This document shows positions 5,317 through 31,866 of a DNA stretch of 64,000 nucleotides, piece by piece. Under the pieces are notes generated by a model. The model saw only the letters and a list, made by a program, of their open reading frames with translations, did no database searches and was not told the DNA's origin. The first letter of the stretch is position 1; every line of letters starts with the position of its first letter. Both the position numbers and the translations under genes were made by a program. This DNA is from an uncultured Actinomycetes bacterium. Lineage in GTDB: Bacteria > Actinomycetota > Thermoleophilia > Gaiellales > Gaiellaceae. The stretch covers positions 725 through 64,724 of the forward strand of contig CAWGEE010000007.1 of the NCBI GenBank assembly GCA_963821415.1, read 5' to 3'.

Positions 5317-5522
5317 CGATCGAAGCTAGCACAGGCTCTTTCCCGGACTCACTCTTTACAGACACCTAACGGCGGGCAATCGTGCCGTCATGGCCATGGA
5401 CGAGACTGCGAGCAGTTCCTGCCGAGGGATCGGCAGGCATTTGCGTAGACTCAACCCCGACGTACGGACGAAACCTGATCCCACTCCGACGCCAAGCCTC
5501 GTGAAAAGCCGCCCTCCAGACA

Positions 5523-6142
5523 GTGCTGCTCGTGCTCGTCGCCGCCGCGGGAGCACTGCTCCTCGCCGGCCCGGCCGCCGCGAAGGAGCCCTGCTGGAAG
5601 ACGCTGATCGACGACTGGTACGACGGCCGGATCGACAACGTCTATCCCGTGGCGTGCTACCGAGCAGCGCTGGAGCACATGCCCGAGGACGTCGCCCAGT
5701 ACTCGACGCTCGGCGACGACATCAACCGCGCGCTCCAGGCAGCCATCGCCGCGGAGAGCTCTGGCGGGGGATCGAACGGCAACTCGTCCGGCAACCCTCC
5801 GGCGACTCGATCGGGCGTGAAGGGCGAGACCAGCTCGAACTCGAGCACCGACACGAGCACGTTCTACGGCGGGCCCACCGCGGAGCGCGAAGGCGCGGTG
5901 CTCGCCTCGGACGGACGTGACCCGGCGGCGGGGCGGTCGGCCAGGCGCTGGATTCCATCGGCCCGGGCGACGCGGACTCCGTGCCCGTGCCGCTACTCGT
6001 GCTGGCCGCGCTCTCCATCCTGCTGCTGACGCTGGGAGCCGCCGGCTTCGTTGCCCGGCGGGTGCAGACACGTCGCGCAACCGTCGGTCCTCGCGGCGAC
6101 GCTGAGCGACCGCGTTTCCGTCCGACTCCGGCTCTACGCTAG
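5523..6142 (+). pseudogene. secreted, C-terminally membrane-anchored 2-Cys domain protein (paralog 1), one frame break
   Basis: ORF 5523..6029 has a signal peptide (MLLVLVAAAGALLLAGPAAA), then KEPCWKTLIDDWYDGRIDNVYPVACYRAALEHMPEDVAQYSTLGDDINRAL and a Ser/Gly-rich linker. After ~5930 the plausible continuation (DSVPVPLLVLAALSILLLTLGAAGFVARRVQTRR, a TM anchor) is in the -1 frame and ends at TAG 6140-6142. Confidence 0.6.
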
Positions 6143-9474: not shown

Positions 9475-9939
9475 ATGAAGATCTTCAACCTCAACAGCGA
9501 CGAGTGGGACGGGACGAGGGACCGCGAGGGCTGGCGCGTCAAGGGCGCGCTTGTCGGCCAACGCATCGGCGGTGAGCTAATCGGCGCGACCATGTCCGAG
9601 GTCGAGCCTGGCAGCAGGCTCTGGCCCTACCACACGCACTACCTGAACGAGGAATGGGTGATCGTGCTCCGCGGCGAGCCGACGCTGCGCACGCCCGAAG
9701 GTGAGCATGTGTTGAAGGAGGGTGACGTCGTCTGCTTTCCGCGGGGCAAGGACGGTGCGCATCAGATCATCAACCGAACAGACTCGCCTATTCGCGTACT
9801 CATGCTCTCCTCGATGGTCCGCGGCGAGATCATCGAGTACCTCGACACCGGAAAGGTGCTCGCCAAGGGCGTCGACGACGAAGACATCTTGTTCGCGAGG
9901 CCCGGACCCGCGGTCGAGTACTGGGAAGACGAGGACTAG
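9475..9939 (+). CDS. cupin-domain protein
   Basis: ORF 9475..9939 carries cupin motifs (PYHTHYLNEEWVIVLRGE ... GDVVCFPRGKDGAHQIIN). TAGGCT (9463-9468)-N6-ATG. Confidence 0.85.
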   Translation: MKIFNLNSDEWDGTRDREGWRVKGALVGQRIGGELIGATMSEVEPGSRLWPYHTHYLNEEWVIVLRGEPTLRTPEGEHVLKEGDVVCFPRGKDGAHQIINRTDSPIRVLMLSSMVRGEIIEYLDTGKVLAKGVDDEDILFARPGPAVEYWEDED

Positions 9940-9952
9940 ACGGCTCCGCGGC

Positions 9953-10418
9953 ATGAAGGTCTTCAACCTCAACAGCGACGAGTGGGATCGCACGGAGGAT
10001 CGCGAGGGTTGGCGCATCAAGGACGCCTGGGTCGGCGCGCACATCGACGCCGAGCTGATCGGCGCAAGCATGTACGAGGTCGAGCCGGGGAACAAGCAGG
10101 GGCCATTCCACACGCACCACGCGAACGAGGAGTGGGTGATCGTCCTCCGCGGCGAGCCGACGCTCCGCACGCACGAGGGCGAGCAGGTGCTGCGCGAGGG
10201 CGACGTGGTCGCCTTCCCCCGCGGCAAGGAGGGCGCGCACCAGATCCGCAACGACACGGACGCGCCGATCCGCGTGCTCATGCTCTCGACGCTCGATCGC
10301 GCCGGACATCGTCGAGTACCTCGACACCGGCAAGATCGGCGCGCGGAGCGTCGCCGGCGACCGGATCCTGTTCGCTCGCCCCGGGCCTGAGCTCGAGTAC
10401 TGGGAAGACGAGGACTAG
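9953..10418 (+). pseudogene. cupin-domain protein, tandem paralog of 9475..9939, one frame break near the 3' end
   Basis: MKVFNLNSDEWDRTEDREGWRIKDAW...FHTHHANEEWVIVLRGEPTLRTHEGE parallels the upstream cupin residue for residue. After ~10300 the homologous tail PDIVEYLDTGKIGARSVAGDRILFARPGPELEYWEDED is in the +1 frame and ends at TAG 10416-10418. Confidence 0.75.
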
Positions 10419-10431
10419 GGAGAACTCGGCT

Positions 10432-10814
10432 GTGACGCTCGAGGAGCTCGACCGCTGGCTCGACGTCTACGGCCGCGCGTGGGAGCGGCAGGACGTGGAC
10501 GCCTTCGTCGCCTGCTACGCCGAGGACGCCGTCTACCACTGGGGCCCGTGGGGGAGCCGCTGCGCGGCCACGACGAGATTCGCGCCCGCACGGAGCAGGC
10601 GATCGCCGAGCAAGAGGACATCCAGTTCGGCCACGAGCCGCTCGCGATCACGCCCGACGGACGCGGCATCGCCCGCTGGTGGGTCTCGATCAAGCTGAAG
10701 GGCGAGGACACGATCGAGGAGAACGAGGGCATCTTCCTCGTCACGCTCGACGAGAACGGCCGGTGCACGGACTTCCGCGAGTGGTGGAACAGCCGCACGC
10801 GGCCGGTGAGCTAG
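10432..10814 (+). pseudogene. SnoaL/NTF2-like fold protein, one frame break
   Basis: GTG 10432 gives VTLEELDRWLDVYGRAWERQDVDAFVACYAEDAVYHWGPWG. The sequence then continues as EPLRGHDEIRARTEQAIAEQ...FLVTLDENGRCTDFREWW in ORF 10479..10814. The break sits in a G5 run at 10550-10554, where one G appears to be missing. Confidence 0.7.
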
Positions 10815-10816
10815 CC

Positions 10817-11206
10817 GTGGAGCGCGTGCGCATCGACAAGTGGCTGTGGGCGGCGCGGTTCTTCAAGACCCGCTCCGCTGCGACGGAGGCCGTCGCAGGC
10901 GGCCACGTGCGCGTCAACGGCGCGCGTGCGAAGCCGTCCCGCGAAGTAGCCGTCGGCGACCGTATCGAGGTACGAAGGAGCGCTCAGGGGTGGACGGTCG
11001 ACATCCGGGCGCTCGCCGATCGCCGCGGCCCGGCGACCGCCGCCGCAGCGCTCTACGAGGAGACGCCGGAGTCCTCGGCCGCACGCGAGCAGCGCCGGCT
11101 CGAGGCGCGGGCTAGCCGCCCGCTGGGAGCAGACCTGGGCGTTCGGCCGACCAAGCGCGACCGGCGCCGGCTCGATGCGCTACGCCGCGGTCAGCGGCGC
11201 AGGTAG
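10817..11206 (+). CDS. S4-domain RNA-binding protein (Hsp15/HslR-like)
   Basis: In-frame GTG at 10817 within ORF 10679..11206. The N-terminus VERVRIDKWLWAARFFKTRSAATEAVAGGHVRVNGARAKPS is the S4 motif, followed by a basic C-terminal tail. Confidence 0.75.
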   Translation: MERVRIDKWLWAARFFKTRSAATEAVAGGHVRVNGARAKPSREVAVGDRIEVRRSAQGWTVDIRALADRRGPATAAAALYEETPESSAAREQRRLEARASRPLGADLGVRPTKRDRRRLDALRRGQRRR

Positions 11207-11214
11207 TCGTCGTC

Positions 11215-12609
11215 TCAGCCTGACGCGATGTTGAACGTGCTGCTGAAGACGTTGTCCGGGTCGTACGTCGCTTTCACCTCGCGCAGACGCTCGAAGTTGG
11301 CTCCGTACGTCTCGGGGAGCGCGGCTTGCCCTTCGTCTGTGAAGCCGCCGAAGTTGAGGTATGTGCCACCCGGGAATCGCTCGCCGAGCGCCGACACGAG
11401 CTCGCGCGCCCACGCGAGGTTTGCCTCGTCGTCGGCCGGATCGTCCCAGTTCGACTCGACGCCGATCAGATACGGGTGGTCTCGCCGTGCAAAGGCGCTG
11501 CCGCCACTCGGCTCTTGCGCCATTGCGCCGCCGAGGGCCCAGACGTCCACGGAGCTGAGCGGCGACGGCCGACGCGCGGCGCTGTCGGTCAAGATGTCGA
11601 CGACCTCGTCGTCGAGTGAATCGATGTAGATCGACTTCCAGTAGTAGCGGCGCCCGTCCGGGTATTCGGGATCGAAGATCTGCTGTAGCTCGAGGTACGG
11701 CATCGGACCGCTGAAGTCTGCGATCGGTGTCGCCAGCTCGCGCAACGGTCGCGTCGCCTCCTCCCCGTCGGCGACGTCGCCCGACCAGGCGCCGATGAAG
11801 ACGATGACCGGCGCGCCCCACCACTGCTCCGGGATCGGCTCCTCGTGGCCGGCCGTCCAGAGGACGGCCAGGACCATCAGCTCGTCCGGCGCGTCCCTCA
11901 TGACTTCGTCGAAGCGGCGGAGACCAGCCGCAGATTCGGCAGCCGGGTAGATCGTCATCAACGTGAACACCTCGGGACCGAGCTCGTGCAGGCGGTACTC
12001 GAGCGAGGTCACGACCCCGAAGTTCCCACCTCCGCCGCGCAGCGCCCAGAGCAGGTCGGGATGCGTCCGCTCGTCGACATTCAGCAGACGGCCGTCGGCC
12101 GTGACGACGTCGGCGGCGACGAGGTTGTCGCACGACAGCCCATACCGGCGCGTGAGGAAGCCGAGCCCGCCGTGGAGTGTCAGCCCGCCGATCCCCGTTC
12201 GCGGCACCGCGCCCAGGGGCGTCACCAGCCCGAAGGCCTGGGTCTCGTGGTCGACGTCTGCGAGGACGGCACCGCCTCCCGCGCGAACGGTTCGCCGCTC
12301 GAGGTCGACGCGGGCGCGGTTCAGCGGGGAGAGATCGATGACGACGCCGCCGTCGACCAATGCGTTCCCTGCAACGTTGTGGCCGCCTCCCCTTACCGAG
12401 ACGGGTAAATGCTCCTTGCGCGCGAACTCGAGCGCAGCGGTCACGTCTGCGTTGCCGGTGCAACGAACGACCGCGGCCGGCCGGCGCTCGATCATCCCGT
12501 TCCAGACCTTGGCGGCCTCTTCGTAGGCGGCGTCCCCCGGCGCGAGGACCGTTCCGCGAACGCGAGCCCGCAGCGCTTCCAAGCGAGCCTCCTCAGTCCC
12601 GATGACCAT
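11215..12609 (-). CDS. FAD-linked oxidase (PCMH/BBE-type FAD-binding domain)
   Basis: Part of ORF 11215..13056(-). Motifs include RGGGHNVAGNA, LRGGGGNFGVVTS and the C-terminal BBE-like YLNF...YDPDNVF. The ATG at 12609 is preceded by GGGAGGTG. Upstream ORF codons are antisense to the TfoX gene. Confidence 0.85.
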   Translation of the reverse strand: MVIGTEEARLEALRARVRGTVLAPGDAAYEEAAKVWNGMIERRPAAVVRCTGNADVTAALEFARKEHLPVSVRGGGHNVAGNALVDGGVVIDLSPLNRARVDLERRTVRAGGGAVLADVDHETQAFGLVTPLGAVPRTGIGGLTLHGGLGFLTRRYGLSCDNLVAADVVTADGRLLNVDERTHPDLLWALRGGGGNFGVVTSLEYRLHELGPEVFTLMTIYPAAESAAGLRRFDEVMRDAPDELMVLAVLWTAGHEEPIPEQWWGAPVIVFIGAWSGDVADGEEATRPLRELATPIADFSGPMPYLELQQIFDPEYPDGRRYYWKSIYIDSLDDEVVDILTDSAARRPSPLSSVDVWALGGAMAQEPSGGSAFARRDHPYLIGVESNWDDPADDEANLAWARELVSALGERFPGGTYLNFGGFTDEGQAALPETYGANFERLREVKATYDPDNVFSSTFNIASG

Positions 12610-12699
12610 CGCCACCTCCCTTGTGTCGGCGATACCGTAACGCCCGCCGATCAGCCGCGTGCCGGACATTGCGCACGGTCGGCCGATTAGGCTCCCGGC

Positions 12700-13032
12700 A
12701 TGGCGTACGACGAGGCGCTGGCCGGCCGGATCCGGGACGTGCTCGCAGACCGCGGTGATCGCGTCCGTGAGCAGAAGATGTTCGGCGGAATCGCCTTCAT
12801 GGTCGACGGGCACATGACCGTCGGCGTCGTCAAGGACGAGCTCATGGCGCGCGTCGGGCCCGACGGCGAGGACGACGCGCTCGCCCAGCCTCACGCCCGC
12901 ACGATGGACTTCACCGGCCGCCCGATGACCGGGTTCATCCAGTTGGCAGCGGCCGGCGTCGCCACGGAGGACGACGTCAAAGCCTGGGTGGATCGCTCCC
13001 TCGCATTCACAACGACGCTGCCGCCGAAGTAG
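12700..13032 (+). CDS. TfoX/Sxy N-terminal-domain family protein (copy 1)
   Basis: The 110-aa ORF reads MAYDEALAGRIRDVL...KMFGGIAFMVDGHMTVGV...MARVGPDG...MTGFI...WVDRSLAFTTTLPPK, the typical small TfoX_N pattern. TAGGCT (12688-12693)-N6-ATG. Confidence 0.75.
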   Translation: MAYDEALAGRIRDVLADRGDRVREQKMFGGIAFMVDGHMTVGVVKDELMARVGPDGEDDALAQPHARTMDFTGRPMTGFIQLAAAGVATEDDVKAWVDRSLAFTTTLPPK

Positions 13033-13054
13033 TGCCGCTGCGGAACGAGAGCGC

Positions 13055-13588
13055 ATGGTCGCCGGCGAGTCGTACGACGCCTCGGATCCGGCGCTCGTGG
13101 CGGCGCGTGCACGCGCCCGCCGACTGACGGCGCGCTACAACACGACGTCACAGGAAGACGGCGACGAGCGGCGCGCACTGTTGACTGAGCTGTTCGAAGA
13201 GGTCGGCGACGGAGCGTGGATCGAGCCGCCGTTCCAGTGCGATTACGGCTGGAACATCACGCTCGGAGACCGTGTGTTCCTGAACTTCAACTGCGTGATC
13301 CTCGACTGCGCCCCCGTCACGATCGGTGCGCGTACGCAGATCGGCCCCGCAGTGCAGCTCTGCGCAGCCACGCATCCCGTGAGCCCGGAAGAGCGTGCTG
13401 AGGGCATCGAGTACGCGAAGCCGATCTCGATCGGGCGCAACGTGTGGATCGGCGCGGGCGCGATCGTCGGCCCAGGCGTCACGATCGGCGACGATGCCGT
13501 CATCGGCGCGGGCAGCGTAGTCCTACGCGATGTGCCGGCGCGCTCGGTGGCCGCCGGCGTCCCCTGCCGGATCCTGCGGTCGATCTAA
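13055..13588 (+). CDS. maltose/galactoside O-acetyltransferase-like hexapeptide-repeat protein (copy 1)
   Basis: ORF 13055..13588 has a Mac-type N-terminus (SYDASDPALVAARARARRLTARYN) and a left-handed beta-helix (NVWIGAGAIVGPGVTIGDDAVIGAGSVV). Confidence 0.85.
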   Translation: MVAGESYDASDPALVAARARARRLTARYNTTSQEDGDERRALLTELFEEVGDGAWIEPPFQCDYGWNITLGDRVFLNFNCVILDCAPVTIGARTQIGPAVQLCAATHPVSPEERAEGIEYAKPISIGRNVWIGAGAIVGPGVTIGDDAVIGAGSVVLRDVPARSVAAGVPCRILRSI

Positions 13589-13652
13589 GCCACGCCGCTG
13601 TACCCCCACGAGCCGAGGTTTAATGACGGGCTGAGGCGAGTACGATCGGTCC

Positions 13653-16376
13653 ATGCTGTACGGCCGCGAGGCCGAGTGCACGGCTGTCGACGCGTTGCTC
13701 GACGGGGCGCGCGCGTCGCAGAGCGGCGTCCTCGTCCTGCGCGGCGAGCCAGGCGTGGGCAAGTCGGTACTGCTCGCGTACGGCAGCGACCAAGCTGAGG
13801 GATTTCGCGTGCTCCGCGCGACCGGCATCGAGTCCGAATCCCAACTGCCGTTCGCCGGGCTCCACCAGCTCCTCTGGCCCGTGCTCGACCGAGTCGACAC
13901 GCTCCACGGCCCGCAGGCCGCCGCGTTGAGAGCCGCGTTCGGGCTGACGGACGAGGGCGTCGGCGATCGGTTCCTCGTCTACTTCGGGGTGCTGAGCCTC
14001 CTGGCCGAGGTCGCCGAGGACGGCCCGCTGCTCTGTCTCGTGGACGACGCCCAGTGGCTCGACGACCCCTCGGCGGACGCGCTCGTGTTCGCCAGCCGCC
14101 GCCTCCAGGCCGAGCGAGTCGTGATGCTCTTTGCCGCGCGCGAGGGCACGGATGCGACCTTCGCCGGGCCGGGACTGCCCGACCTCCACGTGGGCGGCCT
14201 AGACAGGGAAGCGGCCGGGACACTCCTCGCGGAGCGGGGAGCGCTGTCGCCCGAGGTCCGGCAGCAGCTCTTCGAAGCGACGGCCGGCAACCCACTCGCA
14301 CTTGTCGAGTTGGCCGCCGAGCTGACCGAGGCGCAGTTGACGGGACGGGAGACGCTGCCAGAGCGGCTCGTCCTGGGCAGCGGCGTCGAGCGCGCATTCC
14401 TCGAGCGGGTCCGCGAACTACCGGATGACACCCGCGGCCTGCTCGTGCTCGCGGCAGCCGACGACACCGGCAGCCTCTCGGCGATATTCGGTGCCGGGAC
14501 TGCGCTAGGCGTCACGTCCGACGCGCTGGCCGCTGCGGAGTCAGCCGGCCTCGTGCGCGCGGACGACGGCCACCTTCACTTCCGCCACCCCCTCGTCCGC
14601 TCCGCCGTCTACCAGGGCGCCTCGTTCGCCGAACGCCAGGACGCTCACCTCGCCCTCGCGGCGGCGCTCGACGGCGATGAGCACAGCGATCGCCGAGCCT
14701 GGCATCGCGCGGCCGCCACCCTCGAGCCCGACGCGGAGGTCGCCGACGAGCTCGAGCGCACGGCCGACCGCGCACGAGCTGCGAAGCGGCTTCGCGGCCG
14801 CGGGCGCGGCCCTCGAGCGGGCCGCGGAGCTCTCCGTCGACGACAGAGGAGCGTGCGCGCCGGTACGTCTCCGCTGCCCGGGAGGCCTGGCTCGGGGGCC
14901 GGCCGGAGCGGGCACGGGCGCTCCTCGACCGGACGGAGGCGACTGGTGGAGGACGAGGTCCTGAGAGCCGAGATCCTCCACGCCAGGGGCGTGATCGAGA
15001 ACCATTGCGGTGTTCCCGAGCGCGCGCGCCAGATCCTCGTCGCGGGCGCGGAGGCAATACGGGAGGTGGATCCCGACCGCGCGGGGCGCATGCTCGCCGA
15101 CGCCGGACACGCGGCGACGTTCATCGGGGACGCGCAGCACACGCTGGCCGTGGCGGAAGCCGCCGCCTCGCTCCCCGAGTCGGCCGAGGCGGCCTTCGCC
15201 GCCGACCTCTTCGGCGGCTGCGCGTACGTCTACCTCGACGAGCCGGAGAAGGCGGCGCGCCTACCTGCGCCGCGCCCTCGAGCGCGCCGAGGCTCGGAGC
15301 GAAGACCCGCGCTCGCTCGTCCACGTCGGCGGCGCGGCGAGCTACCTCGGCGACGACGCGAGGGCCAGACGCTCGTACGCGAGGCCGCCGACCGCGCCCG
15401 AGCCGCCGGCGCCGTGCGGCAGCCTCGTGATCGCGCTCGACGCCCTCGCGTCCGGCGAGGTGTGGTCGGGCCGGCCGATCTGCGGCCGCCGAGTACGGAA
15501 GCGAAGGGACTGACGCTCGCGCGTGAGACCGGCGAGGGAAACGCCGAGTGCAGATTGCTCGGCACCCTCGCGTTCGTCGCTGCCACTCAGGGACGGGAAG
15601 ACGACTGCCGGCAGCTAGCGGGTGAGGCACTTGCGCAGGCGCAGGCCCGCGGTCTGGTGAACCAGGGCACATTCGCCGAGTGGGCGCTCGGACGGCTCGA
15701 GCTCGGACTCGGCAGATACGAGGAGGCTCTCGGCCGCCTCGAGCGCGCCTCGACGGGCCACCCGTTCGCGGGGCTGCTGCTCACGCCCGACCTCGTCGAG
15801 GCAGCGGTGCGAACCGACCGGCGCGAGGCCGCCCTCACGGGATTCGCCCGCTTCGAGCGCTGGGCTGAGGCGACCGAGTCCGCGTGGGGCGCCGCCGCCG
15901 TCAGCCGCTGCCGGGGCCTCCTGACAGCGGGCGAGACCGCCAGCCGGCACTTCGCCGAGGCGGTCAGCCTCCACACAGCGCCATACGACCGCGCCCGCAC
16001 CCAACTCGTGTACGGCGAGCACCTCCGGCGCGAGCGCCGGCGGAGCGAGGCGCGTGATCACCTCCGCGCAGCGGTCGAGCTCTTCGCGCAGCTCGGAGCG
16101 GCGCCTTGGGAAGAGCGTGCGCGGGCGGAGCTGCGCGCGACGGGAGAGAGTGCACGAAAGCGCGACCCGAGCACGATCGACCTGCTGACGCCGCAGGAGC
16201 TGCAGATCGCCCGTCTCGTGAGCGAAGGGCAGACGAACAAAGAGGTGGCAGCCCAGCTGTTCCTCAGCCCGCGGACGATCGACTACCACCTGCGCAAGGT
16301 GTTCCAGAAGCTCCGAATCTCCTCGCGTGCGCAGCTGAGCAAGCTCGACCTCAGCCGCGAGCCTGCACCTGCGTAG
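13653..16376 (+). pseudogene. large ATP-binding LuxR-family (LAL-type) transcriptional regulator, at least 6 internal frame changes
   Basis: It has Walker A GEPGVGKS, a TPR-like middle, and a C-terminal LuxR HTH (LTPQELQIARLVSEGQTNKEVAAQLFLSPRTIDYHLRKVFQKL). The 907-aa ORF stays open only because of GC bias. Arg-rich nonsense stretches (~14755-14945 and ~15250-15510) are replaced by good family sequence in the other frames, e.g. SGFAAAGAALERAAELS, ERARRYVSAAREAWLGGRPERARALLDR, YLRRALERAEARSEDPRSLVHVGGAASYLGDD. TACGAT (13641-13646)-N6-ATG. Confidence 0.8.
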
Positions 16377-16474
16377 CCGGTCACAAGACTGGCGATCTCG
16401 CTGATGCGACCGGCGATGCCCGGTGCGAGCCTCCAGACGTGGTCAATAGCACGTCAACCGAAGGAGGGAACCGC

Positions 16475-16507
16475 ATGTCGACCACTATCAGGCTCCGACG
16501 GCGGTGA
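16475..16507 (+). CDS. 10-codon upstream ORF ([10 protein letters not shown]) translationally coupled to the ABC ATPase gene
   Basis: GAAGGAGGG lies 7 nt upstream of ATG 16475. The stop TGA 16505-16507 overlaps GTG 16504 of the ATPase (GGTGA). The ATPase GTG has no SD of its own. Confidence 0.3.
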   Translation: MSTTIRLRRR

Positions 16508-17256
16508 TCGACGGGCTGGCCGAGCGGCCGCCCGTCATCGTCGAGGGGCAGGGGATCGCCCGCTGCTACGGCACGGGCGACGCCGCGGTGCACGCCCTGC
16601 GCGGTGTGACGCTTTCCGTCGCCAAGGGCGAGCTGATCGCGGTCATGGGGCCATCGGGCTCCGGTAAGTCCACGCTGATGCACATCCTCGCCGGGCTCGA
16701 CCACCCGGACGAGGGCGAAGTCTGGATCGCCGACACGGAGATCACCCAGCTCGGCGACGACGCGCTGACGAAGCTCCGCCGGCGGCACGTCGGCTTCATC
16801 TTCCAGTTCTTCAACCTGCTCCCGATGCTCACGGCCGAGGAGAACATCCTCCTGCCGCTGAGGATCGCGGGCAAGAAGCCCGAACGTGCGTGGGTCGACG
16901 AGGTCGTGTCGACGGTCGGGCTCGCGGATAGGCTCTCCCACCGGCCGTCGGAGCTCTCCGGCGGCCAGCAGCAGCGCGTGGCCATCGCGCGCGCGATGGT
17001 CTCCCGGCCGACGGTGATGTTCGCCGACGAGCCGACGGGCAACCTCGACTCGCAGACGGGCGCCGAGATCCTCGAGCTGCTGCGGCACTCGGTGGAGCGC
17101 TACGAGCAAACGACCGTCATGGTCACCCACGATCCGACTGCGGCGGCGATCGCCGACCGCATCGTGTTCCTCGCCGACGGGCAGGTCGTCAAGACCCTCG
17201 GCCACACGGACGGCCGCACAGTCCTGGCGGCCATGGAGGAGGTGAGCTCGAGGTGA
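16504..17256 (+). CDS. ABC transporter ATP-binding protein (MacB/LolD/FtsE-like)
   Basis: ORF 16504..17256 has Walker [10 protein letters not shown], the signature [14 protein letters not shown] and Walker [13 protein letters not shown]. Confidence 0.9.
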
Positions 17257-19834
17257 TCGCCGTCGCACTCAAAGGGCTCCTGGGACGGAAGGTCCGCGCC
17301 ATCCTGACCGGCTTCGCCGTCGTGCTCGGCGTGGCGATGGTCAGCGGCACATTCATCCTGACGGACACCATCTCGAAGGCGTTCGATCAGATCTTCAACG
17401 GCACGTACGAGAACACGTCGGCCGTCATCTCGGGCAAGGAGATCGTGAAGGGCTCGTCGAGCGGCAACGCGACGATCCCTGCCTCGCTCCTCCAGCACGT
17501 CCGGCGCATCGACGGCGTTGCCGAGGCGGCGGGCGCCATTTACGACCTCGGATCGAGCTCCAACTACACGAAGCTCGTCGCTGCCGACGGAAGGTGATCG
17601 GAGGCGGCGGTGCCCCGACCCTCGGCTTCGGGATCGACACCTCCAGCCGCGGTTCAATCCGCTGAACCTCGTCGAAGGGGAGTGGGCAATCGGCCAGCAG
17701 GTCGTGGTCGACAAGGGAACTGCCGGCTCAACGATCTGGCAGTCGGGGAGACTCATCGGCGTGTCCACGCGGGGACGCGTGGAGCAGTTCACGATCTCCG
17801 GGATCGCGAAGTTCGGCACGGTCGACTCGCTTGGCGGCGCCACGCTCGCGGTGTTCGACATCCCGACCGCCCAGCGCCTGCTGGGCAAGGAAGGGCAGTT
17901 CGACAGCATCTCCGTCGCGGCCGAGAGCGGCGTTTCGCCGACTGCGCTCGCGGCGAAGATCCGACGAAGTCCTGCCCGCATCTGCTCAGGTGCAAGACCG
18001 GGGCAGAGCAGGCGCAAGCGAGCGCGAAGGACACGAAGACGTTCATGAAGTTCATCCAGCTGTTCCTGCTCGCGTTCGGCGGCATCGCGCTGTTCGTAGG
18101 CGCGTTCGTCATCTTCAACACGCTCTCGATCACGGTCGCTCAGCGGACGAGGGAGTTCGCCACATTGCGGGCCCTGGGTGCCTCACGACGGCAGGTTCTC
18201 CGCTCCGTCCTGTTGGAAGGGCTGGTGATCGGGTTCGTCGCCTCGATCGTCGGACTCGCGCTCGGGGTCGGCCTCGCGAAGGGCCTGACGTGGCTGCTCG
18301 GCGTCCTCCAGCTCGACCTGCCTCAGGCGGGAACGGTATTCGAGGCCCGCACGATCGTCGATCTCCATGATCGTCGGCGTCGGGATCACGCTGGTCGCGA
18401 CGGTGGGGCCGGCACTGAGGGCGACCCGCGTGCCGCCGATCGCAGCGGTTCGCGAGGGCTCGACCCTCCCCAAGTCCCGCTTCGCACCCATCGCCCCGTT
18501 CGTGGCTCTGGGACTGATCGTGGCGGGGGCGGCAGCATTCGCGACGGCACTTGGATTCGGATCGCTCGAGACGCGCTGGGTGCTCCTGCTGATCGCGGCC
18601 GGATGCATCGCAGTGTTCCTCGGCGTCGGGATGATCTCGTCTCGTCTCGTTCGTCCGCTCGTGAAGGTCGTCGGGCAGCCGGCGCGACACGGCGGCGGCG
18701 AAGCGGGCAAGCTGGCGAGCGAGAACGCCGTCCGGAACCCGTCTCGCACAGCCTCGACGGCGGCCGCGCTGATGATCGGCCTCGCGCTCGTCACGGTCGT
18801 GGCGACGCTCGGTACGAGCATGCGGAATTCGGACAAGGCTGCGATTGCCGCGCAGCTCGACACGGACTTCGTGGTTACGTCGAAGAACGGGTTCGACGTC
18901 TTCCAGGCGCAGGCGGGCGAGCTGCTCGCGGCGGTACCCGGCATCGGAGCCGTCACGAACGTCCGTCAGGAGAAGGCGAAGGTGGCCGGTGCGACGACCA
19001 CCGTGCACGGAGTCGACCCATCGATAGGCCAGACGGCAAGCTTCCAGTGGAGGTCAGGCAGTGACGACGTGCTTGCCGATCTCGGTGCAAACGGCGTGAT
19101 CCTCAAGCAGCTGTTCGCCGAGAAGCACGACCTCGCTGTCGGCAGCAACGTGTCGCTCCTGACCCCTTCGGGTGACCGCCACTCGTTCACCGTTCGCGGC
19201 CTCTTCGAGCCGGCCGCATTCGACCGGATCGACCCGCTCTTCGGGAACGTGGTCATGTCGAGGACCGCGTTCGACTCGTCCTTCGCGAGGCCTCAGAACA
19301 TCCTCGCGCTCGTCGAGCTCGGGCGAGACGCAACGCCGGCCACGCTGACGGGCATGAATGACGTCCTCGCTCAGTACCCCGGGACGGTCATGCGAAGCGA
19401 GGCCGACTACGTGACCTGGCGGGCTGCAGGGCTGAACAAGCTCCTCAACTTGCTCTACGTCCTCCTCGCACTGTCGGTCATCGTCAGCCTGTTCGGGATG
19501 ATCAACACGCTCATCCTGTCGACCTTTGAGCGGACAAGGGAGCTCGGCATGCTCCGAGCAGTCGGCATGACGCGCCGCCAGGTGCGACGGATGGTGCGCC
19601 ACGAGAGCGTCATCACGGCACTGATCGGTGCGGCGCTCGGCTTGCCGATCGGCGTCGCGCTGGCGGCGCTCGTCACGAATGCACTCTCCGATCAGGGGCT
19701 CGTCTTCAGCGTGTCCATCGGCTACCTCGCGGTGTTCACACTCGTAGCGATCGCCGCCGGTGTGGTGGCGGCGATCGCACCGGCCCGGCGAGCCGGACGG
19801 CTGAACGTCCTGGCCGCGCCTCCACTACGAGTAA
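17253..19834 (+). pseudogene. ABC transporter permease with two FtsX/MacB-type domains, about 6 frame changes
   Basis: Consecutive pieces lie in ORFs 17253..17597, 17518..18048, 17831..18370, 17610..19064 and 18367..19908. FtsX hallmarks include FMKFIQLFLLAFGGIALFVGAFVIFNTLSITVAQRTREFATLRALGASRRQV and LFGMINTLILSTFERTRELGMLRAVGMTRRQV. Breaks lie near 17590, 17650, 17960, 17990, 18365 and 19819. The last restores the typical end ...LNVLAALHYE, TAA 19832-19834. Confidence 0.75.
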
Positions 19835-19844
19835 GCAGAACTAA

Positions 19845-19868
19845 GGGGGGCGGCGTCCGCCGCCCCCC
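19845..19868 (+). terminator. GC-rich hairpin downstream of the ABC permease
   Basis: GGGGGGCGGC-GTCC-GCCGCCCCCC is a 10-bp perfect stem, followed by TCCTCTT (a weak U-tract). It starts 11 nt after the proposed stop. Confidence 0.5.
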
Positions 19869-19978
19869 TCCTCTTGACTCATGCTCTGCATGGGGATCGC
19901 TCCGCTAGCGGGCAGTCGACGCGTGTACCGTCGTAGCGTTTCAGCAAGCGGGCAGACAGACGACATAGGCTTTCGGGC

Positions 19979-20311
19979 ATGGCCTACGACGAGGCGCTGG
20001 CCGGCCGAATCCGCGACGTGCTCGCAGACCGCGGTGATCGCGTTCGTGAGCAGAAGATGTTCGGCGGGATCGCCTTCATGGTCGACGGGCACATGACGGT
20101 CGGCGTCGTCAAGGACGAGCTGATGGCACGCGTCGGCGCGGACGGCGAGGACGACGCACTCGCCCAGCCGCACGCGCGGACGATGGACTTCACCGGCAGG
20201 CCGATGACCGGGTTCATCCAGGTCTCAGCCGCCGGCGTCGCCACGGAGGAGGACGTCAAGGCCTGGGTGGATCGCGCCCTGGCGTTCACGACGACGCTGC
20301 CGCCGAAGTAG
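19979..20311 (+). CDS. TfoX/Sxy N-terminal-domain family protein (copy 2)
   Basis: 110 aa, with 6 amino-acid differences from copy 1 (P54A, L85V, A86S, D96E, S105A, and one more). TAGGCT (19966-19971)-N7-ATG. Confidence 0.75.
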   Translation: MAYDEALAGRIRDVLADRGDRVREQKMFGGIAFMVDGHMTVGVVKDELMARVGADGEDDALAQPHARTMDFTGRPMTGFIQVSAAGVATEEDVKAWVDRALAFTTTLPPK

Positions 20312-20335
20312 TGCGCGGCAGTGGAACGAGCGCGC

Positions 20336-20869
20336 ATGGTCGCCGGCGAGTCGTACGACGCCTCGGATCCGGCGCTCGTGGCGGCGCGTGCACGCGCCCG
20401 CCGGCTGACGGCGCGCTACAACACGACGTCACAGGAAGACGGCGACGAGCGGCGCGCACTGTTGACTGAGCTGTTCGAAGAGGTCGGCGACGGAGCGTGG
20501 ATCGAGCCGCCGTTCCAGTGCGATTACGGCTGGAACATCACGCTCGGAGACCGTGTCTTCCTGAACTTCAACTGCGTGATCCTCGACTGCGCCCCCGTCA
20601 CGATCGGTGCGCTTACGCAGATCGGCCCCGCAGTGCAGCTCTGCGCAGCCACGCATCCCGTGAACCCTGAAGAGCGTGCTGAGGGCATCGAGTACGCGAA
20701 GCCGATCTCGATCGGGCGCAACGTCTGGATCGGCGCAGGCGCGATCGTCGGCCCAGGCGTCACGATCGGCGACGATGCCGTCATCGGCGCGGGCAGCGTA
20801 GTCCTACGCGACGTACCCGCGCGCTCGGTGGCCGCCGGCGTCCCCTGCCGGATCCTGCGGTCGATCTAG
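20336..20869 (+). CDS. maltose/galactoside O-acetyltransferase-like hexapeptide-repeat protein (copy 2)
   Basis: Part of ORF 20321..20869. The same MVAGESYD start is chosen as in copy 1. It differs by 2 amino acids (R/L, S/N). Confidence 0.85.
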   Translation: MVAGESYDASDPALVAARARARRLTARYNTTSQEDGDERRALLTELFEEVGDGAWIEPPFQCDYGWNITLGDRVFLNFNCVILDCAPVTIGALTQIGPAVQLCAATHPVNPEERAEGIEYAKPISIGRNVWIGAGAIVGPGVTIGDDAVIGAGSVVLRDVPARSVAAGVPCRILRSI

Positions 20870-20901
20870 GCGCACCGAAACGCGAGCCGTAGAATCGCCG
20901 C

Positions 20902-22713
20902 GTGGCCGACGCCCCGCGTCACGACTACCTGCCGATCGCGGATCACGGCATCATCGGCGACCTGCACTCGGCTGCGCTCGTCGGCACCGACGGCACGATC
21001 GACTGGTACTGCCACGACCGCTTCGACGCGCCCAGCGTGTTCGCGTCGATCCTCGACGCCGAGCGCGGCGGCTTCTTCCGTCTCACGCCGATCAAGTGCC
21101 AGTGGACGTCGAAGCAGCTCTACGTGCCGGACACGAACGTCCTCATCACACGGTTCCTGTCGCAGGACGGCGTGGGCGAGGTCATCGACTTCATGCCCGT
21201 CGACGACCGCCGGCAGGGGACGCACCGCCAGCGGCTCGTGCGACGGGTCCTCTGCGTGAAGGGCGCGCTGCAGTTCCAGGCCGAGGTGGAGCCGCGCTTC
21301 GACTACGGCCGTGCGGACGCGGACATCGCCGTCACCGACGACGGCGCCGTCTTCGCCTCACCCGATCTGACGCTCTCGCTCTCGGCCCGCGTCCCGTCTC
21401 GAGCGCACGAAGGCAGGTGTCCGCGCTGCCTTCGCACTCGATCAGGGCCAGAGCGCGACGTTCGTGCTCGAGCAAGGCGACCAGCCGCGCCCCGTACGCC
21501 GAGGACGACACGCGCGAGCTGTTCGACGAAACCGTCGACTACTGGCTGCGGTGGATCGCCGCGGCGCGCTACCAGGGACGGTGGCGCGAGATCGTGAGGC
21601 GTTCCGCGCTGACGTTGAAGCTCCTGACGTACCAGTCCGTCGGGCGCGCTCATCGCCGCCGCGACGACGAGCCTCCCCGAGCAGCTCGGCGGCGAGCGCA
21701 ACTGGGACTACCGCTACACGTGGATTCGCGACGCGGCGTTCTCCCTCTACGCGCTGCTGCGGCTGGGCTTCACGGAGGAGGCCGCAGCGTTCGGCGGCTG
21801 GCTGACCGACCGATTCCGCGAGGAGCACAAAGGCGAGTCCGGGCCGCTCCAGATCATGTACGCGATCGACGGCAACTCCGATCTCGAGGAGCAGATCCTC
21901 GACCACCTGGAGGGCTACTGCGGCTCGGGCCCGGTGCGAATCGGCAACGGCGCCGCCGACCAGCTGCAGCTCGACATCTACGGCGAGCTCGTCGACTCCG
22001 TCTACCTCTACAACAAGTACGGCGAGCCGATCTCCCACGACGCCTGGATGGATCTGACGCGAATCGTCAACTGGGTCTGCGAGAACTGGGACCAGCCGGA
22101 CGAGGGGATCTGGGAGACGCGCGGCGGCCGCCAACACTTCACGTACTCGCGGCTGATGTGCTGGGTAGCGGTCGAGCGGGCGGTCCGCGTCGCGCGCCAG
22201 CGCGGCCTACCGGCCGATCTCGTCGCCTGGACGAAGACGCGCGACGAGATCTACCACCAGATCATGGAGAAGGGCTGGAACGAGGAGCGCGGCGCGTTCG
22301 TGCAGCACTACGGCTCGGACGTCCTCGACGCGTCGAACCTCCTCATGCCGCTCGTGAAGTTCGTCTCGCCCACCGATCCGCGCTGGCTCTCGACGCTCGA
22401 CCTGATGACGGAGGAGCTCGTCTCCGACACGCTCGTCTACCGCTACAACGTCAGGGCCTCGCCGGACGGAGTCGAGGGCGACGAGGGCACGTTCTCGATC
22501 TGCTCGTTCTGGTACGTGGAGGCGCTGGCACGCGCGGGCCAGCTCGATCGCGCGCGCATCGCCTTCGAGAAGATGCTCACGTACGCGAACCACCTCGGCC
22601 TCTTCTCCGAGGAGATCGGCCCGCACGGCGAGCAGCTCGGCAACTTCCCGCAGGCGTTCACGCACCTGGCGCTGATCAGCGCCGCGACGAACCTCGACCG
22701 CCAGCTTGGCTAG
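20902..22713 (+). pseudogene. glycoside hydrolase family 15 (glucoamylase/trehalase-like), 3 frame changes
   Basis: Pieces lie in ORF 20902..21597, the frames of ORFs 21464 and 21096, then ORF 21856..22713. Motifs include [53 protein letters not shown] and [18 protein letters not shown]. Breaks lie near 21395, 21490 and 21640. TAGAAT (20890-20895)-N6-GTG. Confidence 0.8.
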
Positions 22714-23145
22714 GCCAGCTCCATGTCGACAAACGGCACGTCGCCCCAGCCCTCGAAGAACCGCGTCTTGGTGCCCGTCCGCCGGAACCCGGCTCGCTCG
22801 TACACGTGGATCGCCCGCTCGTTGAACTCGGCCACGTCGAGCACGAACCGGGTCGCTCCAAGATCGCTCTCTCGCGAAGTCGAGACCGGCGGTCACGAAG
22901 GCCTGCCCTAACCCGCGTCCGGTGAGGTCGGGCCTCAGCCCGAGGCCGTAAAACATCGCGCCTCCACGCTCCGCGAAGAAGTAGAAGCCTGCGATTGCAC
23001 CGTCGTCGGTGAGCACGCTGTAGAAGCACTCCGGATTCAGGGGCGGGAGCCCGTCGTCGTCGTAGAAGTCGTAGGGCGGCGGATACCGCCACTTCCCCCG
23101 CTCCCGAAACAGCGCGTCCGTTGCAGGCTCGATGCGGAGGATCAC
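22710..23145 (-). pseudogene. GNAT-family N-acetyltransferase, one frame break
   Basis: ORF 22207..23145(-) N-terminal part reads ...FYFFAERGGAMFYGLGLRPDLTGRGLGQAFV (the acetyl-CoA Q/RxxGxG/A motif). After ~22870 the family tail GATRFVLDVAEFNERAIHVYERAGFRRTG...DMELA is in another frame and stops at 22710-22712. Confidence 0.65.
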
Positions 23146-23312
23146 GGCAGCGAACGAAGGATCTGCTCTGCCTCGGCAACGACCCGCCGCACGATTTCGC
23201 CTGCGGGGAGCACCTCGTCGACGAGCCCGCCGTCTCCGAACCCGCCTGCCGCGACCGCGCAGACGACGGGGTGCTCGATGCCGACGAGCCGGGTGAACGC
23301 CGTCTCGATCAC
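23142..23312 (-). pseudogene. 56-codon remnant of a nitronate-monooxygenase-like gene (large internal deletion)
   Basis: Below the ORF-track size cut-off. My translation is VIETAFTRLVGIEHPVVCAVAAGGFGDGGLVDEVLPAGEIVRRVVAEAEQILRSLP. It looks like the N-terminal and C-terminal ends of an NMO/enoyl-reductase-type TIM barrel joined in frame. TAGAAT (23319-23324, minus)-N6-GTG. The stop overlaps the GNAT GTG (GTGA). Confidence 0.4.
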
Positions 23313-23329
23313 GCGCCGATTCTAGTGCT

Positions 23330-23362
23330 ATAGTTCACTCCGAAATAGTTCACACTGAACTA
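23330..23362. promoter_or_regulatory. candidate PadR operator in an AT-rich divergent promoter region
   Basis: ATAGTTCAC occurs twice (23330-23338 and 23345-23353). The second copy is part of the perfect inverted repeat TAGTTCA-cac-TGAACTA (23346-23362), 19 nt upstream of the PadR GTG. Confidence 0.5.
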
Positions 23363-23380
23363 ACACCCACCGAAGCGGCC

Positions 23381-23878
23381 GTGCTCTCACTCCTTGCCAT
23401 CGAGGGCGAGCGGTCGCGCTACGACCTCATGAAGAGCCTCTCGAAGGCGATCGGCTACATCTGGGCGCCGGCGAAGACGCAGCTCTACGCGCTCCTCCCC
23501 AAGCTCGCCGAGCGCGGCCTCGCGACGAGCCGTACGGTGCGTGAAGGCGCGCGGCCGGAGAAGAAGCTCTTCAAGATCACGAGCGCCGGCCAGTCGGAGC
23601 TCGATCGCTGGCTCGCAGAGCGGCCCGACTCGACCGAGACCTTCTACCTCCGGCTCTTCGTCGGCGGCCTCGTCCCGCCGGAGGTGCTCGCTCAACACGT
23701 TGAGTGGTTCCGCGAGCGGACGGCCGAGCAGCTCGAGGAGTACCGGCAGATCGAGCCGACGAACACGCGCACGGACAACGACTTCTTCCACTACTTCCTG
23801 CTCCGCCTCGGCATCGAGCGCTCGGAGCATCTCCTCCGCTGGTCGGACTGGGTTCTCGAGGAGCTCGAGGCCGCATGA
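23381..23878 (+). CDS. PadR-family transcriptional regulator
   Basis: ORF 23381..23878 has the winged-helix region ERSRYDLMKSLSKAIGYIWAPAKTQLYALLPKLAERGLA and a C-terminal dimerisation helix. In-frame upstream codons (ELTPTEAA) also look PadR-like but have no canonical start, so the start is uncertain. Confidence 0.8.
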   Translation: MLSLLAIEGERSRYDLMKSLSKAIGYIWAPAKTQLYALLPKLAERGLATSRTVREGARPEKKLFKITSAGQSELDRWLAERPDSTETFYLRLFVGGLVPPEVLAQHVEWFRERTAEQLEEYRQIEPTNTRTDNDFFHYFLLRLGIERSEHLLRWSDWVLEELEAA

Positions 23879-25149: not shown

Positions 25150-25178
25150 AGCCTTAGGTCTGCGACAATCGCGGCCTC

Positions 25179-31734: not shown

Positions 31735-31755
31735 GATCGCGACTTACAAGGAGGA

Positions 31756-31841: not shown

Positions 31842-31866
31842 CCCTACCGCGCTCTACGATCACGTC

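Follow-up and report, generated by a model that had tools for sequence, protein, structure and literature searches.

Within the window (the whole stretch of 64,000 nucleotides that was analysed), a cassette encoding a regulator and a transporter lies between two direct copies of a TfoX_N and acetyltransferase gene pair, which raises the question of how the two copies came to enclose it and whether, as the initial annotation proposed, the cassette is decaying. The two direct copies themselves are real. Copy A (12693-13590) and copy B (19972-20871) display 95.2% identity, with 43 mismatches over 897 aligned nucleotides and two indels, one of 1 nt and one of 2 nt, both in non-coding spacers. Each copy comprises a gene for a TfoX_N-only protein of 110 aa (TfoX A, 12700-13032; TfoX B, 19979-20311) followed by a gene for a maltose/galactoside O-acetyltransferase-like protein of 177 aa (Maa A, 13055-13588; Maa B, 20336-20869, read from the ATG at 20336), all on the forward strand. 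The TfoX genes differ at 27 of 333 nt and the Maa genes at 11 of 534 (Fisher p = 4.8e-5), exactly as counted before. By codon position these differences distribute as 5/0/22 in TfoX and 0/2/9 in Maa; the TfoX proteins differ at five amino acids rather than the six stated earlier, and the Maa proteins at two. Both copies are intact and under purifying selection, and their 43 substitutions and unlike flanks mark them as distinct. A -10-like hexamer, TAGGCT, marks the left edge of each copy on the forward strand, 6 nt upstream of the TfoX A start codon (12688-12693) and 7 nt upstream of that of TfoX B (19966-19971), whereas at the right end the similarity does not stop exactly at the Maa stop codon, as had been claimed, but runs a few nucleotides past it. 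TAGGCT or TAGGAT is found at an equal distance before TfoX in five related contigs (L081, L086, L088, L089 and L094), three of which (L081, L086 and L088) also have in common the sequence 5' of TfoX B, GACGACATAGGCT. The hexamer might represent a promoter producing a leaderless mRNA; a scan with the sigma-70 consensus found no promoter.

The left neighbour of copy A is an intact FAD-binding/BBE-type oxidase gene on the reverse strand (FADox, 11218-12609; Pfam FAD_binding_4 and BBE), which is read in a single frame of 464 aa and is 96.8% identical to its orthologue in contig L089. Copy B is followed on the forward strand by a conserved right neighbour, a trehalase/glucoamylase-like GH15 gene (20902-22710; Pfam TREH_N, with an NCBIfam TreH-like match under the cut-off). 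The TfoX copies match PF04993 (TfoX_N) over residues 19-103 (E = 1e-17), whereas TfoX_C was not found in the 110-aa protein by Pfam and the NCBIfam models gave no match. Full-length TfoX/Sxy proteins are about 200 aa long and include the TfoX_C domain. The window proteins therefore share TfoX_N with these competence regulators but differ from them in consisting of the N-terminal domain only. Maa contains PF12464 (Mac) and the hexapeptide repeats PF00132 and PF14602 and scores 204.8 bits against the NCBIfam maltose O-acetyltransferase model NF007499, under its 314-bit cut-off; the predicted relationship to that enzyme is a similarity at the family level only.

As for the 6.4 kb between the copies, Pfam and a hairpin search bear out the reported contents with one exception. 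The first gene (13653-16376, forward strand) is a LuxR-type regulator gene whose 907-aa ORF has AAA_16 at residues 2-157, TPR_12 at 634-699 and GerE at 844-895; it stays open despite about seven window-specific 1-nt indels, which garble its middle part. The predicted product has the LAL architecture, namely, an N-terminal NTPase, central TPR and a C-terminal GerE helix-turn-helix in about 900 aa. It is followed on the same strand by a gene for a MacB/LolD-type ABC ATPase (16475-17256; Pfam ABC_tran, NCBIfam MacB/LolD-like) and a duplicated MacB_PCD/FtsX permease gene (17253-19834, the last position being the end of its stop codon), in which some 6-8 small indels divide the reading among four frames. 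Its pieces match MacB_PCD and FtsX twice in Pfam and, weakly, the ADOP duplicated-permease model; full-length homologues have 829-854 aa, and the ORF at 18367-19908 corresponds to P0121 at 100% identity. The nearest permeases outside the clade are at most 57% identical. A G+C-rich hairpin with a 12-bp stem (19843-19870), 3' of the permease gene, is a likely intrinsic terminator, conserved in contig L086 and, in L087, with the stem kept despite sequence changes. The exception is the upstream ORF of 10 codons placed before the ATPase gene (16475-16507). It is in fact where the ATPase gene starts, with an ATG and a GAAGGAGG ribosome-binding site, and a 1-nt deletion near 16501 severs it from the rest of the gene. 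In L086 the homologous ATG and ribosome-binding site are read in frame through an ATPase of 260 aa.

The ATPase and the duplicated FtsX permease together are presumed to form an exporter. The cassette has the same domains as systems pairing a LAL regulator with a MacB-type (type VII) ABC exporter, that is, AAA_16-TPR-GerE, ABC_tran and two MacB_PCD + FtsX units, but differs in that it reaches no NCBIfam model cut-off and in that the paralogues of its regulator are not linked to such a transporter. Metagenome contigs searched with the LuxR N-terminus yielded only paralogues of at most 58% identity, with no linkage to the transporter, TfoX or Maa, and these are therefore uninformative as to where the cassette came from. 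Genome contigs searched with a joined TfoX+Maa protein gave, among the matches listed, distant Maa proteins (at most 60% identity), none with TfoX, and no identical protein was returned for Maa A, the ATPase or P0121.

The interval had been described as carrying at least 12 frame changes between intact modules. We count about 16 window-specific indels of a length not divisible by three in the 6.2 kb of the cassette, in LuxR at 14780, 14845, 14940, 15262, 15380, 15416 and 15504, in the ATPase gene near 16501, and in the permease gene at 17592, 17644, 17727, 17750, 17964, 17996, 18361 and 19819. The flanking modules are indeed free of such indels, as is the whole 2.4-kb stretch from FADox through TfoX A to Maa A, but the interval is not alone in having frame changes: at least 10 other window genes have them. 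GH15, for instance, bears three +1 insertions (at 21397, 21488-21490 and 21632-21636) that take it from frame 1 to 2 to 3 and back to 1 relative to its orthologues, and frame switches occur likewise in RNR, cupin, SnoaL, GNAT, S41, DLH, Wzy, hyp434 and HalD; nearly every longer window gene that can be compared with orthologues has such indels. A GC3 frame plot is too noisy for frameshift calls at 69% G+C, and orthologue comparison was used instead. The compared genes outside the cassette have 15 indels in 13.5 kb, so that the density in the cassette is about 2.4 times higher (about 2.6/kb versus about 1.1/kb; binomial p = 0.015, a value that overstates the significance because the events are clustered).

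Could the cassette truly be undergoing inactivation in this lineage by real frameshifts, while its flanking modules are maintained? The higher indel density, against none in FADox and the two 0.9-kb repeats, would suggest so. However, almost all indels, in the cassette and outside, are +1 insertions, a signature that extends to ribonucleotide reductase and at least 10 other genes, and their clustering is as seen with a locally poor consensus. Moreover, no nonsense codons were found in the local frames of the cassette, and the substitutions specific to the window lineage distribute over codon positions as 42:26:164 (71% at third positions), just as in L086 (47:23:160). In LuxR, too, the differences from L086 and L087 fall mainly at third codon positions in each local frame. 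Both L086 and L087 are Flye-style contigs from ENA assemblies with adjacent accession numbers, and they have their own independent, different indels in the same genes, whereas in three JGI contigs (L089-L091) the genes that are frame-shifted in the window are called full-length. The window itself comes from a metagenome contig of a soil Gaiellaceae-like actinobacterium, for which Flye-style contig names and the error pattern suggest a long-read platform. The frameshifts of the cassette, including the one behind the supposed upstream ORF, are thus best explained as consensus indel errors of the assembly, and the cassette as a functional unit under normal purifying selection. Some lesions may be real, as the indel density is higher there and no indels fall in FADox-TfoX A-Maa A, but inactivation of the cassette as a whole appears very unlikely, and its description as decaying is not supported. 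This calls for caution, as frame changes beside intact short genes in long-read metagenome contigs can mimic local decay; here, comparison with orthologues reveals 1-nt indel noise throughout the contig and removes an apparent upstream ORF.

How the arrangement arose can be approached through 14 related contigs, which display at least seven layouts of the locus. Single modules without the cassette, proposed earlier as a comparison, do exist: a single TfoX, with or without Maa, lies beside GH15 in L081-L085, L088-L092, L094 and L175. Four of these, the JGI contigs L089-L092, have FADox (reverse strand)-TfoX-GH15 without Maa; the left flanks of the other cassette-free relatives are unlike that of the window, and these relatives are therefore not simple loop-out products of it. 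Each junction of the window is also known singly from independent assemblies: besides FADox (reverse strand)-TfoX in L089-L092, Maa-LuxR in L087, orthologous to Maa A-LuxR of the window, and permease-hairpin-TfoX-Maa-GH15 in L086. Since the L087 and L086 lineages are 11-16% diverged, the architecture of the cassette junctions is old and does not reflect a fresh integration. The layout FADox (reverse strand)-TfoX-Maa-GH15, which would be the postulated parent or the loop-out allele, was found in none of the sampled genomes.

Identity along the locus is mosaic. The window is collinear with L089 at 11213-13035 (93.9%) and 20901-22736 (94.6%), with 13036-20900 being extra in the window; in the 5' part of GH15, identity reaches 96-97% with L089, as against 88-91% with L086. 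The interior is nearest to L086 (81-99% in patches). The flanks thus find their closest match in a genome that lacks the cassette, and the interior in one that carries it. As for the TfoX copies, in neighbour-joining trees, with bootstraps taken from our own split counts, TfoX B groups with its L086 orthologue (93%), and TfoX A with L088, L089 and L094 (81%). TfoX B is 5.7% divergent from the L086 orthologue and 8.1% from TfoX A. By raw distance TfoX A is nearest to TfoX B, versus 10.5% to L089, and its 81% bootstrap is moderate. A neighbour-joining tree of Maa gave no resolved grouping.

Considering the single junctions found elsewhere, the split of the TfoX clades and the mosaic identities, the repeat is best read as a merger, by homologous recombination, of two haplotypes of a variable locus into a mosaic, a reading to which we assign a probability of about 0.68. 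No integrase or transposase gene was seen near the repeat, in agreement with the initial annotation, nor were plasmid or phage genes; the tRNA scan found no tRNA gene in the 64-kb window, and Rfam gave no match between 9 and 24 kb of the window. With no integrase, transposase or tRNA gene nearby, homologous recombination is the only plausible mechanism. The variable region would consist of a conserved right arm (TfoX_N, at times Maa, then GH15, PadR and an S41-like peptidase) and an exchangeable left arm. In the resident version, FADox (reverse strand) and TfoX A would have been followed by GH15 at the other end; the second version would have been the block Maa-LuxR-ABC-permease-TfoX B-Maa. 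The two would have been joined by RecA-type recombination, with the conserved Maa and/or TfoX, and GH15, as anchors. The repeat copies would then be alleles that share one genome but, in the case of TfoX at least, descend from different lineages, with no recent duplication in place. Such is the order of events that we infer for the locus, as we do the crossover type: a Campbell-type crossover inside Maa or a double crossover with linear DNA would either of them yield the observed structure.

An alternative is an old in-place duplication around the cassette, with the copies, mainly Maa, kept alike by repeated gene conversion. Since the Maa-LuxR junction is shared with L087, Maa was already 5' of LuxR in the common ancestor, yet Maa A is 7.1% divergent from the left copy of L087 and only 2.1% from Maa B, which in turn is 1.9% from its L086 orthologue. 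Divergence between the copies is indeed uneven, as had been noted (8.1% for TfoX and, within Maa, 0.8% over the 5' half and 3.4% over the 3' half), and the longest identical run is 152 nt in Maa versus 29 nt in TfoX. However, the further proposal that this marks a conversion tract inside one duplicated unit is not supported: a GENECONV-like run test by permutation was not significant for a discrete tract in the repeat (p = 0.2), and the two TfoX genes represent separate allelic clades with distinct flanks known from other genomes, TfoX A grouping with alleles of other genomes that have the FADox flank and away from TfoX B. Maa is highly uniform between lineages as well (Maa B is 3.4% divergent from L083, as against 13.5% for TfoX), and the TfoX/Maa divergence ratio is 3.9 for the two copies and 1.0-4.0 among orthologous pairs. 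Concerted evolution by gene conversion is well known from tufA/tufB in Salmonella. The Maa copies resemble these genes in being closer to each other than would be expected from how old the left copy is, but differ in lacking a statistically defined tract, and allele exchange between genomes accounts for the pattern no less well than exchange inside a single genome. Repeated conversion of an old duplication is therefore a tentative alternative, clearly less likely than the merger.

According to the initial annotation, the layout is what would result if a circle carrying the cassette and one repeat copy had integrated by a single Campbell-type crossover, creating a unit similar to the amplifiable units of DNA (AUD) of Streptomyces. 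AUDs are bounded by direct repeats and are amplified or deleted by RecA-dependent recombination (PMC5869714). The layout agrees with this, as do the existence of cassette-free loci in relatives and the absence of an integrase or tRNA gene. A circle Maa-X-TfoX B, X being the cassette, crossing the resident Maa would give the exact order observed and would explain the different descent of the TfoX copies beside near-identical Maa copies. Repeats of several hundred nucleotides that are >90% identical are described as substrates of homologous recombination at Streptomyces AUD borders (PMC5869714), and such repeats flank a unit of a few kilobases here, likewise with no site-specific recombinase. 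But linear DNA exchanged by a double crossover would lead to an identical arrangement, and the structure fits both routes alike. Maa-LuxR and permease-TfoX are old, stable junctions, and none of the relatives has a single TfoX-Maa copy between the two flanks of the window, FADox and GH15. A Campbell-type origin may thus be compatible with the locus without being required, and we consider it improbable as an explanation in its own right. The locus also differs from AUDs in several ways: the repeats range from 92% (TfoX) to 98% (Maa) identity and are of different descent, the host is a Gaiellaceae-like MAG and not Streptomyces, and the arrangement is conserved over 11-16% divergence.

It could also be that the contig joins two co-occurring strain haplotypes and that no single genome has this arrangement. 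The two TfoX copies do resemble alleles of one locus from different lineages, the many consensus errors suggest low coverage or mixed strains, and L087 breaks directly after the cassette, 20 nt past the hairpin. On the other hand, long reads have no difficulty in bridging a repeat of 0.5-0.9 kb with 92-98% identity, and Maa-LuxR and permease-TfoX-Maa-GH15 are each confirmed by independent assemblies. Furthermore, TfoX A-spacer-Maa A is a normal TfoX-Maa junction that is absent from both the FADox-TfoX-GH15 type and the left Maa of L087, and an artefact would therefore need at least three haplotypes. We regard an assembly artefact as quite improbable, somewhat more so than a Campbell-type integration.

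The merger of two haplotypes has its closest parallel in replacement-type flexible genomic islands, in which variable gene sets between conserved flanks are swapped by homologous recombination, as in capsule and O-antigen loci and in islands of marine and soil populations. As in such islands, the right arm (TfoX/Maa/GH15/PadR/S41) and the far-left arm (RNR/cupin/S4) are both conserved, the contents between them come in at least seven versions, identity is mosaic with breakpoints inside conserved genes, and mobility genes are lacking. Unlike in those islands, the exchanged segments are short (1-8 kb) with miscellaneous functions, and the exchange left two tandem copies of the anchor module instead of a clean replacement. 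Thus, recombination between diverged haplotypes can leave two alleles of a gene pair in tandem, mimicking a duplication, and such alleles are a substrate for the later loss of a regulator/exporter cassette; here, loop-out through the repeats is a predicted property and would occur mainly through Maa, with its 152-nt identical run. The locus is a clear, small case of ordinary genome plasticity and opens no new question.

The boundaries of the exchanged segments show some regularity. The TfoX edge lies about 14-22 nt before the ATG in every case, with at least six different left neighbours, and the Maa unit always extends from about -16 to the stop codon, preceded by TfoX, SnoaL or cupin and followed by GH15, LuxR, a CBU_0592-like gene or a BNR gene. 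Integrase-free shuffling of cassettes at short conserved initiation regions would mean that the genes of this locus move as cassettes bounded at gene edges, an idea that we consider extremely unlikely; the alternative is that ordinary recombination, both homologous and illegitimate, produced the layouts and selection sorted them. A site-specific cassette mechanism was set aside, there being no common junction motif beyond each gene's own initiation region; moreover, part of a deleted SnoaL gene persists at the cupin-Maa junction of L089, pointing to ordinary deletion.

The window, with its high G+C content (65–75%), contains two copies of one module in direct orientation, and no inverted repeats were recovered in the repeat search. 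By local alignment, copies A (12688/12693–13590) and B (19966/19972–20871) show 43 mismatches over 897 aligned nt (95.2% identity) and two indels, of 1 and 2 nt, located in the two non-coding spacers. Each copy encodes a 110-aa TfoX_N-only protein (12700–13032 and 19979–20311) and a 177-aa maltose/galactoside O-acetyltransferase-like protein, Maa, with Mac and Hexapep domains (13055–13588 and 20336–20869). According to Pfam, the cassette between the copies comprises a 907-aa LuxR regulator (AAA_16/TPR/GerE), an ABC_tran ATPase and permease pieces with MacB_PCD and FtsX, twice; a hairpin with a 12-bp stem (19843–19870) lies 3′ of the permease gene. On the left, copy A is flanked by a minus-strand FAD_binding_4/BBE oxidase gene (FADox) and, on the right, copy B is followed by a trehalase/glucoamylase-like GH15 gene. 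The direct repeat and gene content of the initial annotation are thus confirmed by alignment and Pfam, making that observation largely correct, and its counts of nucleotide differences, 27/333 in TfoX and 11/534 in Maa (Fisher p = 4.8e-5), are exact on recount, distributed over the codon positions as 5/0/22 and 0/2/9, respectively. The amino-acid changes number five in TfoX, not six, and two in Maa. The repeat edges fall on functional gene boundaries. In every context without cupin coupling, TAGGCT or TAGGAT is conserved 6–7 nt 5′ of the TfoX ATG, which, by analogy with actinobacterial promoters, suggests a putative −10 element of a leaderless transcript; GGAACGAGAGCGC is conserved 5′ of the Maa ATG in all contexts.

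The ORF at 18367–19908 is identical to database protein P0121; the next permeases, one of them labelled Gaiellaceae, are 85–88% identical and others do not exceed 57%. TfoX relatives with 60–94% identity are numerous in soil metagenomes, and we compared gene context in 14 related metagenome contigs, all of which share with the window an outer synteny of RNR, cupins and S4 on the left and PadR, S41, DLH, HalD and PhyH on the right. Cassette-free relatives do exist, for example types a–e: cupin–TfoX–Maa–GH15 (type a, L082–L085), RibD_C(−)–TfoX–Maa–GH15 (type b, L081 and L088), cupin–SnoaL–FADox(−)–TfoX–GH15 without an intervening Maa (type c, L089–L092), SnoaL–Maa–CBU_0592–TfoX–GH15 (type d, L094) and methyltransferase(−)–TfoX–GH15 (type e, L175). 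The full type c layout is seen in L089–L091, L092 being a 2.3-kb contig with unannotated neighbours, and L089 has a cupin–Maa pair 8 kb upstream. The cassette is present in L086, as cupin(−)–LuxR–ABC–permease–TfoX–Maa–GH15 (type f), and in L087, as SnoaL–Maa–LuxR–ABC–permease (type g), where the contig ends 20 nt past the hairpin. This end (L087 11090–11158) sits where a second TfoX–Maa module would begin, and repeated Maa sequence may be why the contig breaks there.

In the window, the FADox(−)–TfoX A junction of type c occurs together with Maa A–LuxR of type g and permease–TfoX B–Maa B–GH15 of type f. By blastn, L089 is collinear with three window segments, 9942–10969 (90%), 11213–13035 (93.9%; FADox to the TfoX A stop codon) and 20901–22736 (94.6%; GH15), and thus 13036–20900, that is, Maa A–LuxR–ABC–permease–TfoX B–Maa B, is a block additional to L089. 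Between FADox and TfoX, hardly any differences separate the intergenic sequences of the window and L089, and the 5′ part of GH15 is 96–97% identical to L089 versus 88–91% to L086. L086, in turn, is collinear with 13640–25193, its identity over the cassette ranging from 99% (16.0–16.4 kb) to 81% (18.2–19.4 kb). TfoX B diverges by 5.7% from L086, 8.1% from TfoX A and 11.4% from L089, and TfoX A by 10.5% from L089 and 11.4% from L086. At the 27 TfoX sites that differ between the copies, L086 has the B state at 22 and the A state at 3, and many states of TfoX A are common to L088, L089 and L094. In neighbour-joining trees (JC distances, 1000 bootstrap replicates), TfoX B groups with L086 (93%) and TfoX A with L088, L089 and L094 (81%); support in the Maa tree is low (45% for A and B, 49% for A, B and L086). 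Together, the mosaic identities and the split between the TfoX clades suggest that the TfoX copies are more aptly seen as two alleles of a single locus that came to share a genome than as the diverged products of a duplication in place.

This arrangement is best read as the product of homologous recombination that joined diverged haplotypes at a variable locus. Of the two crossovers, the one on the right would lie near the GH15 start and the one on the left between the TfoX A 3′ end and Maa A; sites common to the window, L089 and L094 extend as far as 13005, and the spacer between TfoX A and Maa A is of the normal TfoX–Maa kind. Linear DNA could have entered by double crossover from a donor already carrying (TfoX–)Maa–X–TfoX–Maa, X being the cassette, or a Maa–X–TfoX circle by a single crossover inside the resident Maa gene; the same gene order would be expected from both routes. 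No integrase, transposase, tRNA gene or structured RNA was found. Assembly chimerism, which would have produced the layout by joining two parental types, is unlikely, as the TfoX A–Maa A junction is missing from both simple ones. Of the earlier proposal of a Campbell-type integration or amplifiable unit, origin by homologous recombination and the cassette-free relatives stand; the decay, the upstream ORF and the conversion tract that accompanied it are artefacts or better explained otherwise. We regard the locus as a recombination mosaic of an ordinary kind, situated in a flexible genomic region of an uncultured actinobacterium.

The uneven divergence of the copies had been taken to suggest gene conversion or a recombination breakpoint. 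When variable sites were permuted in a GENECONV-like test, no significant tract emerged (the longest run covered 19 sites; p = 0.2), and the TfoX/Maa divergence ratio, 3.9 for A versus B, lies between 1.0 and 4.0 in orthologous pairs; TfoX and Maa of copy B, for instance, differ by 13.5% and 3.4% from L083 and by 5.7% and 1.9% from L086. These ratios indicate that Maa is generally more uniform than TfoX and probably exchanged between lineages. The Maa–LuxR junction is common to the window and L087, implying that the left Maa copy is old; Maa A diverges by 2.1% from Maa B and by 7.1% from the L087 copy. This favours some within-genome homogenisation of Maa, although a Maa allele acquired from elsewhere would account for it equally well. 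Between L082 and L083 (10001–10899 in both), the TfoX protein is identical with a 0.6% nucleotide difference, the adjacent Maa differs by 3.4%, and the L083 Maa is nearer to that of the window than is the L082 Maa; this contrast provides sequence-based evidence for Maa alleles having been exchanged between lineages.

The cassette had been considered to be decaying between intact modules. However, tblastn of L081, L082 and L084 proteins against the window revealed frame switches in nearly every longer gene: RNR (frames 1, 2, 3), the second cupin gene (2, 3), SnoaL (1, 3), GH15 and S41 (1, 2, 3, 1 each), as well as GNAT, DLH, Wzy, hyp434 and HalD. In multi-way nucleotide alignments, window-specific non-3n indels number about 16 in the 6.2-kb cassette (LuxR about 7, ATPase 1, permease 6–8) and 15 in 13.5 kb of compared sequence outside it, a density about 2.4 times higher in the cassette (binomial p = 0.015, the test being too liberal given the clustering); the FADox–TfoX A–Maa A stretch (2.4 kb) has none. 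Inside and outside the cassette, almost all are clustered single-base insertions, with three +1 events within 160–420 nt in each of LuxR, GH15 and S41, where the three successive events restore the frame. Indel sites in the cassette include 14780, 14845, 14940, 16501, 17592, 18361 and 19819. Single-base indels at 6654, 8352, 10295, 10549, 21397, 21490, 21636, 22862, 24531, 24820, 24951, 28317, 29148, 29408 and 31115 are mostly +1 and outside homopolymers. The same genes also contain indels in L086 and L087, which come from independent ENA assemblies whose contigs are named in Flye style, though in each case others than in the window. In the JGI contigs, FADox is called full-length (464 aa; L089–L091), as is GH15 (603 aa; L089 and L091); relative to L089, the window FADox matches the protein in one frame and the window GH15 has three extra bases. 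Differences from L086 and L087 fall chiefly on third codon positions in every local frame, local frames contain no stop codons, and substitutions unique to the window lineage (42:26:164 by codon position) are indistinguishable from those of L086 (47:23:160). The lesions are thus either extremely recent or consensus errors, the latter being far more likely. A Nanopore-only Flye/Medaka workflow for large soil MAG sets included explicit polishing to lower such indels (PMC12313526). Because the single-base indels resemble errors in the assembly consensus, frames in this contig have to be corrected against orthologues before any ORF-based interpretation. The supposed 10-codon upstream ORF (16475–16507, ATG TCG ACC ACT ATC AGG CTC CGA CGG CGG TGA, preceded by a GAAGGAGG ribosome-binding site) is a case in point: the homologous ATG in L086 is the in-frame start of a 260-aa ATPase gene, and one nucleotide present in both L086 and L087 is missing from the window near 16501, so that this ORF is the N-terminus of the ATPase, split off by a single indel.

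Judging by domain content, the predicted products of the cassette are a transcription activator of the LAL type and an exporter of the MacB type whose permease is duplicated, with a terminator at the end; those of the repeated module are a TfoX_N-only protein and a Maa/LacA-like sugar O-acetyltransferase, encoded 5′ of a trehalase-like GH15 enzyme. The 64-nt spacer between copy A and LuxR has no obvious terminator, and transcription of copy A may thus run into the regulator gene. Four other JGI contigs (L103, L104, L112 and L119) carry distant LAL-type LuxR paralogues (51–56% identity) about 2.4–3.5 kb downstream of a divergently oriented GH15 gene (45–47% identity to that of the window). This hints at a recurring link between regulator and GH15 that recalls how glucan metabolism is controlled by MalT-type regulators.

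Several further features are found in and around the locus. On the minus strand, 23160–23312 holds a nitronate monooxygenase remnant of ~38 codons from the start and ~23 from the end of the gene, apparently the result of a real internal deletion; in L081 and L082, the gene lies between GNAT and PadR. Tandem cupin paralogues (9475–9936 and 9953–10415; about 77% nucleotide identity, 17-nt gap) occur in relatives in one to three copies at varying places in the locus and are therefore possible further substrates for rearrangement. Inverted paralogues of a small hypothetical protein (5396–5756, plus strand, and 30313–30777, minus strand; 50–62% aa identity), about 25 kb apart, enclose the whole variable region. 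Compared with L086 and L084, the HalD–PhyH intergenic region contains a 101-nt insertion (31746–31848). Finally, in L089 (1711–1746), a 15-nt leftover of the SnoaL 3′ end (ttctgcacggactta) separates the stop codon of cupin from the Maa copy upstream, indicating that this cupin–Maa junction arose through SnoaL deletion.
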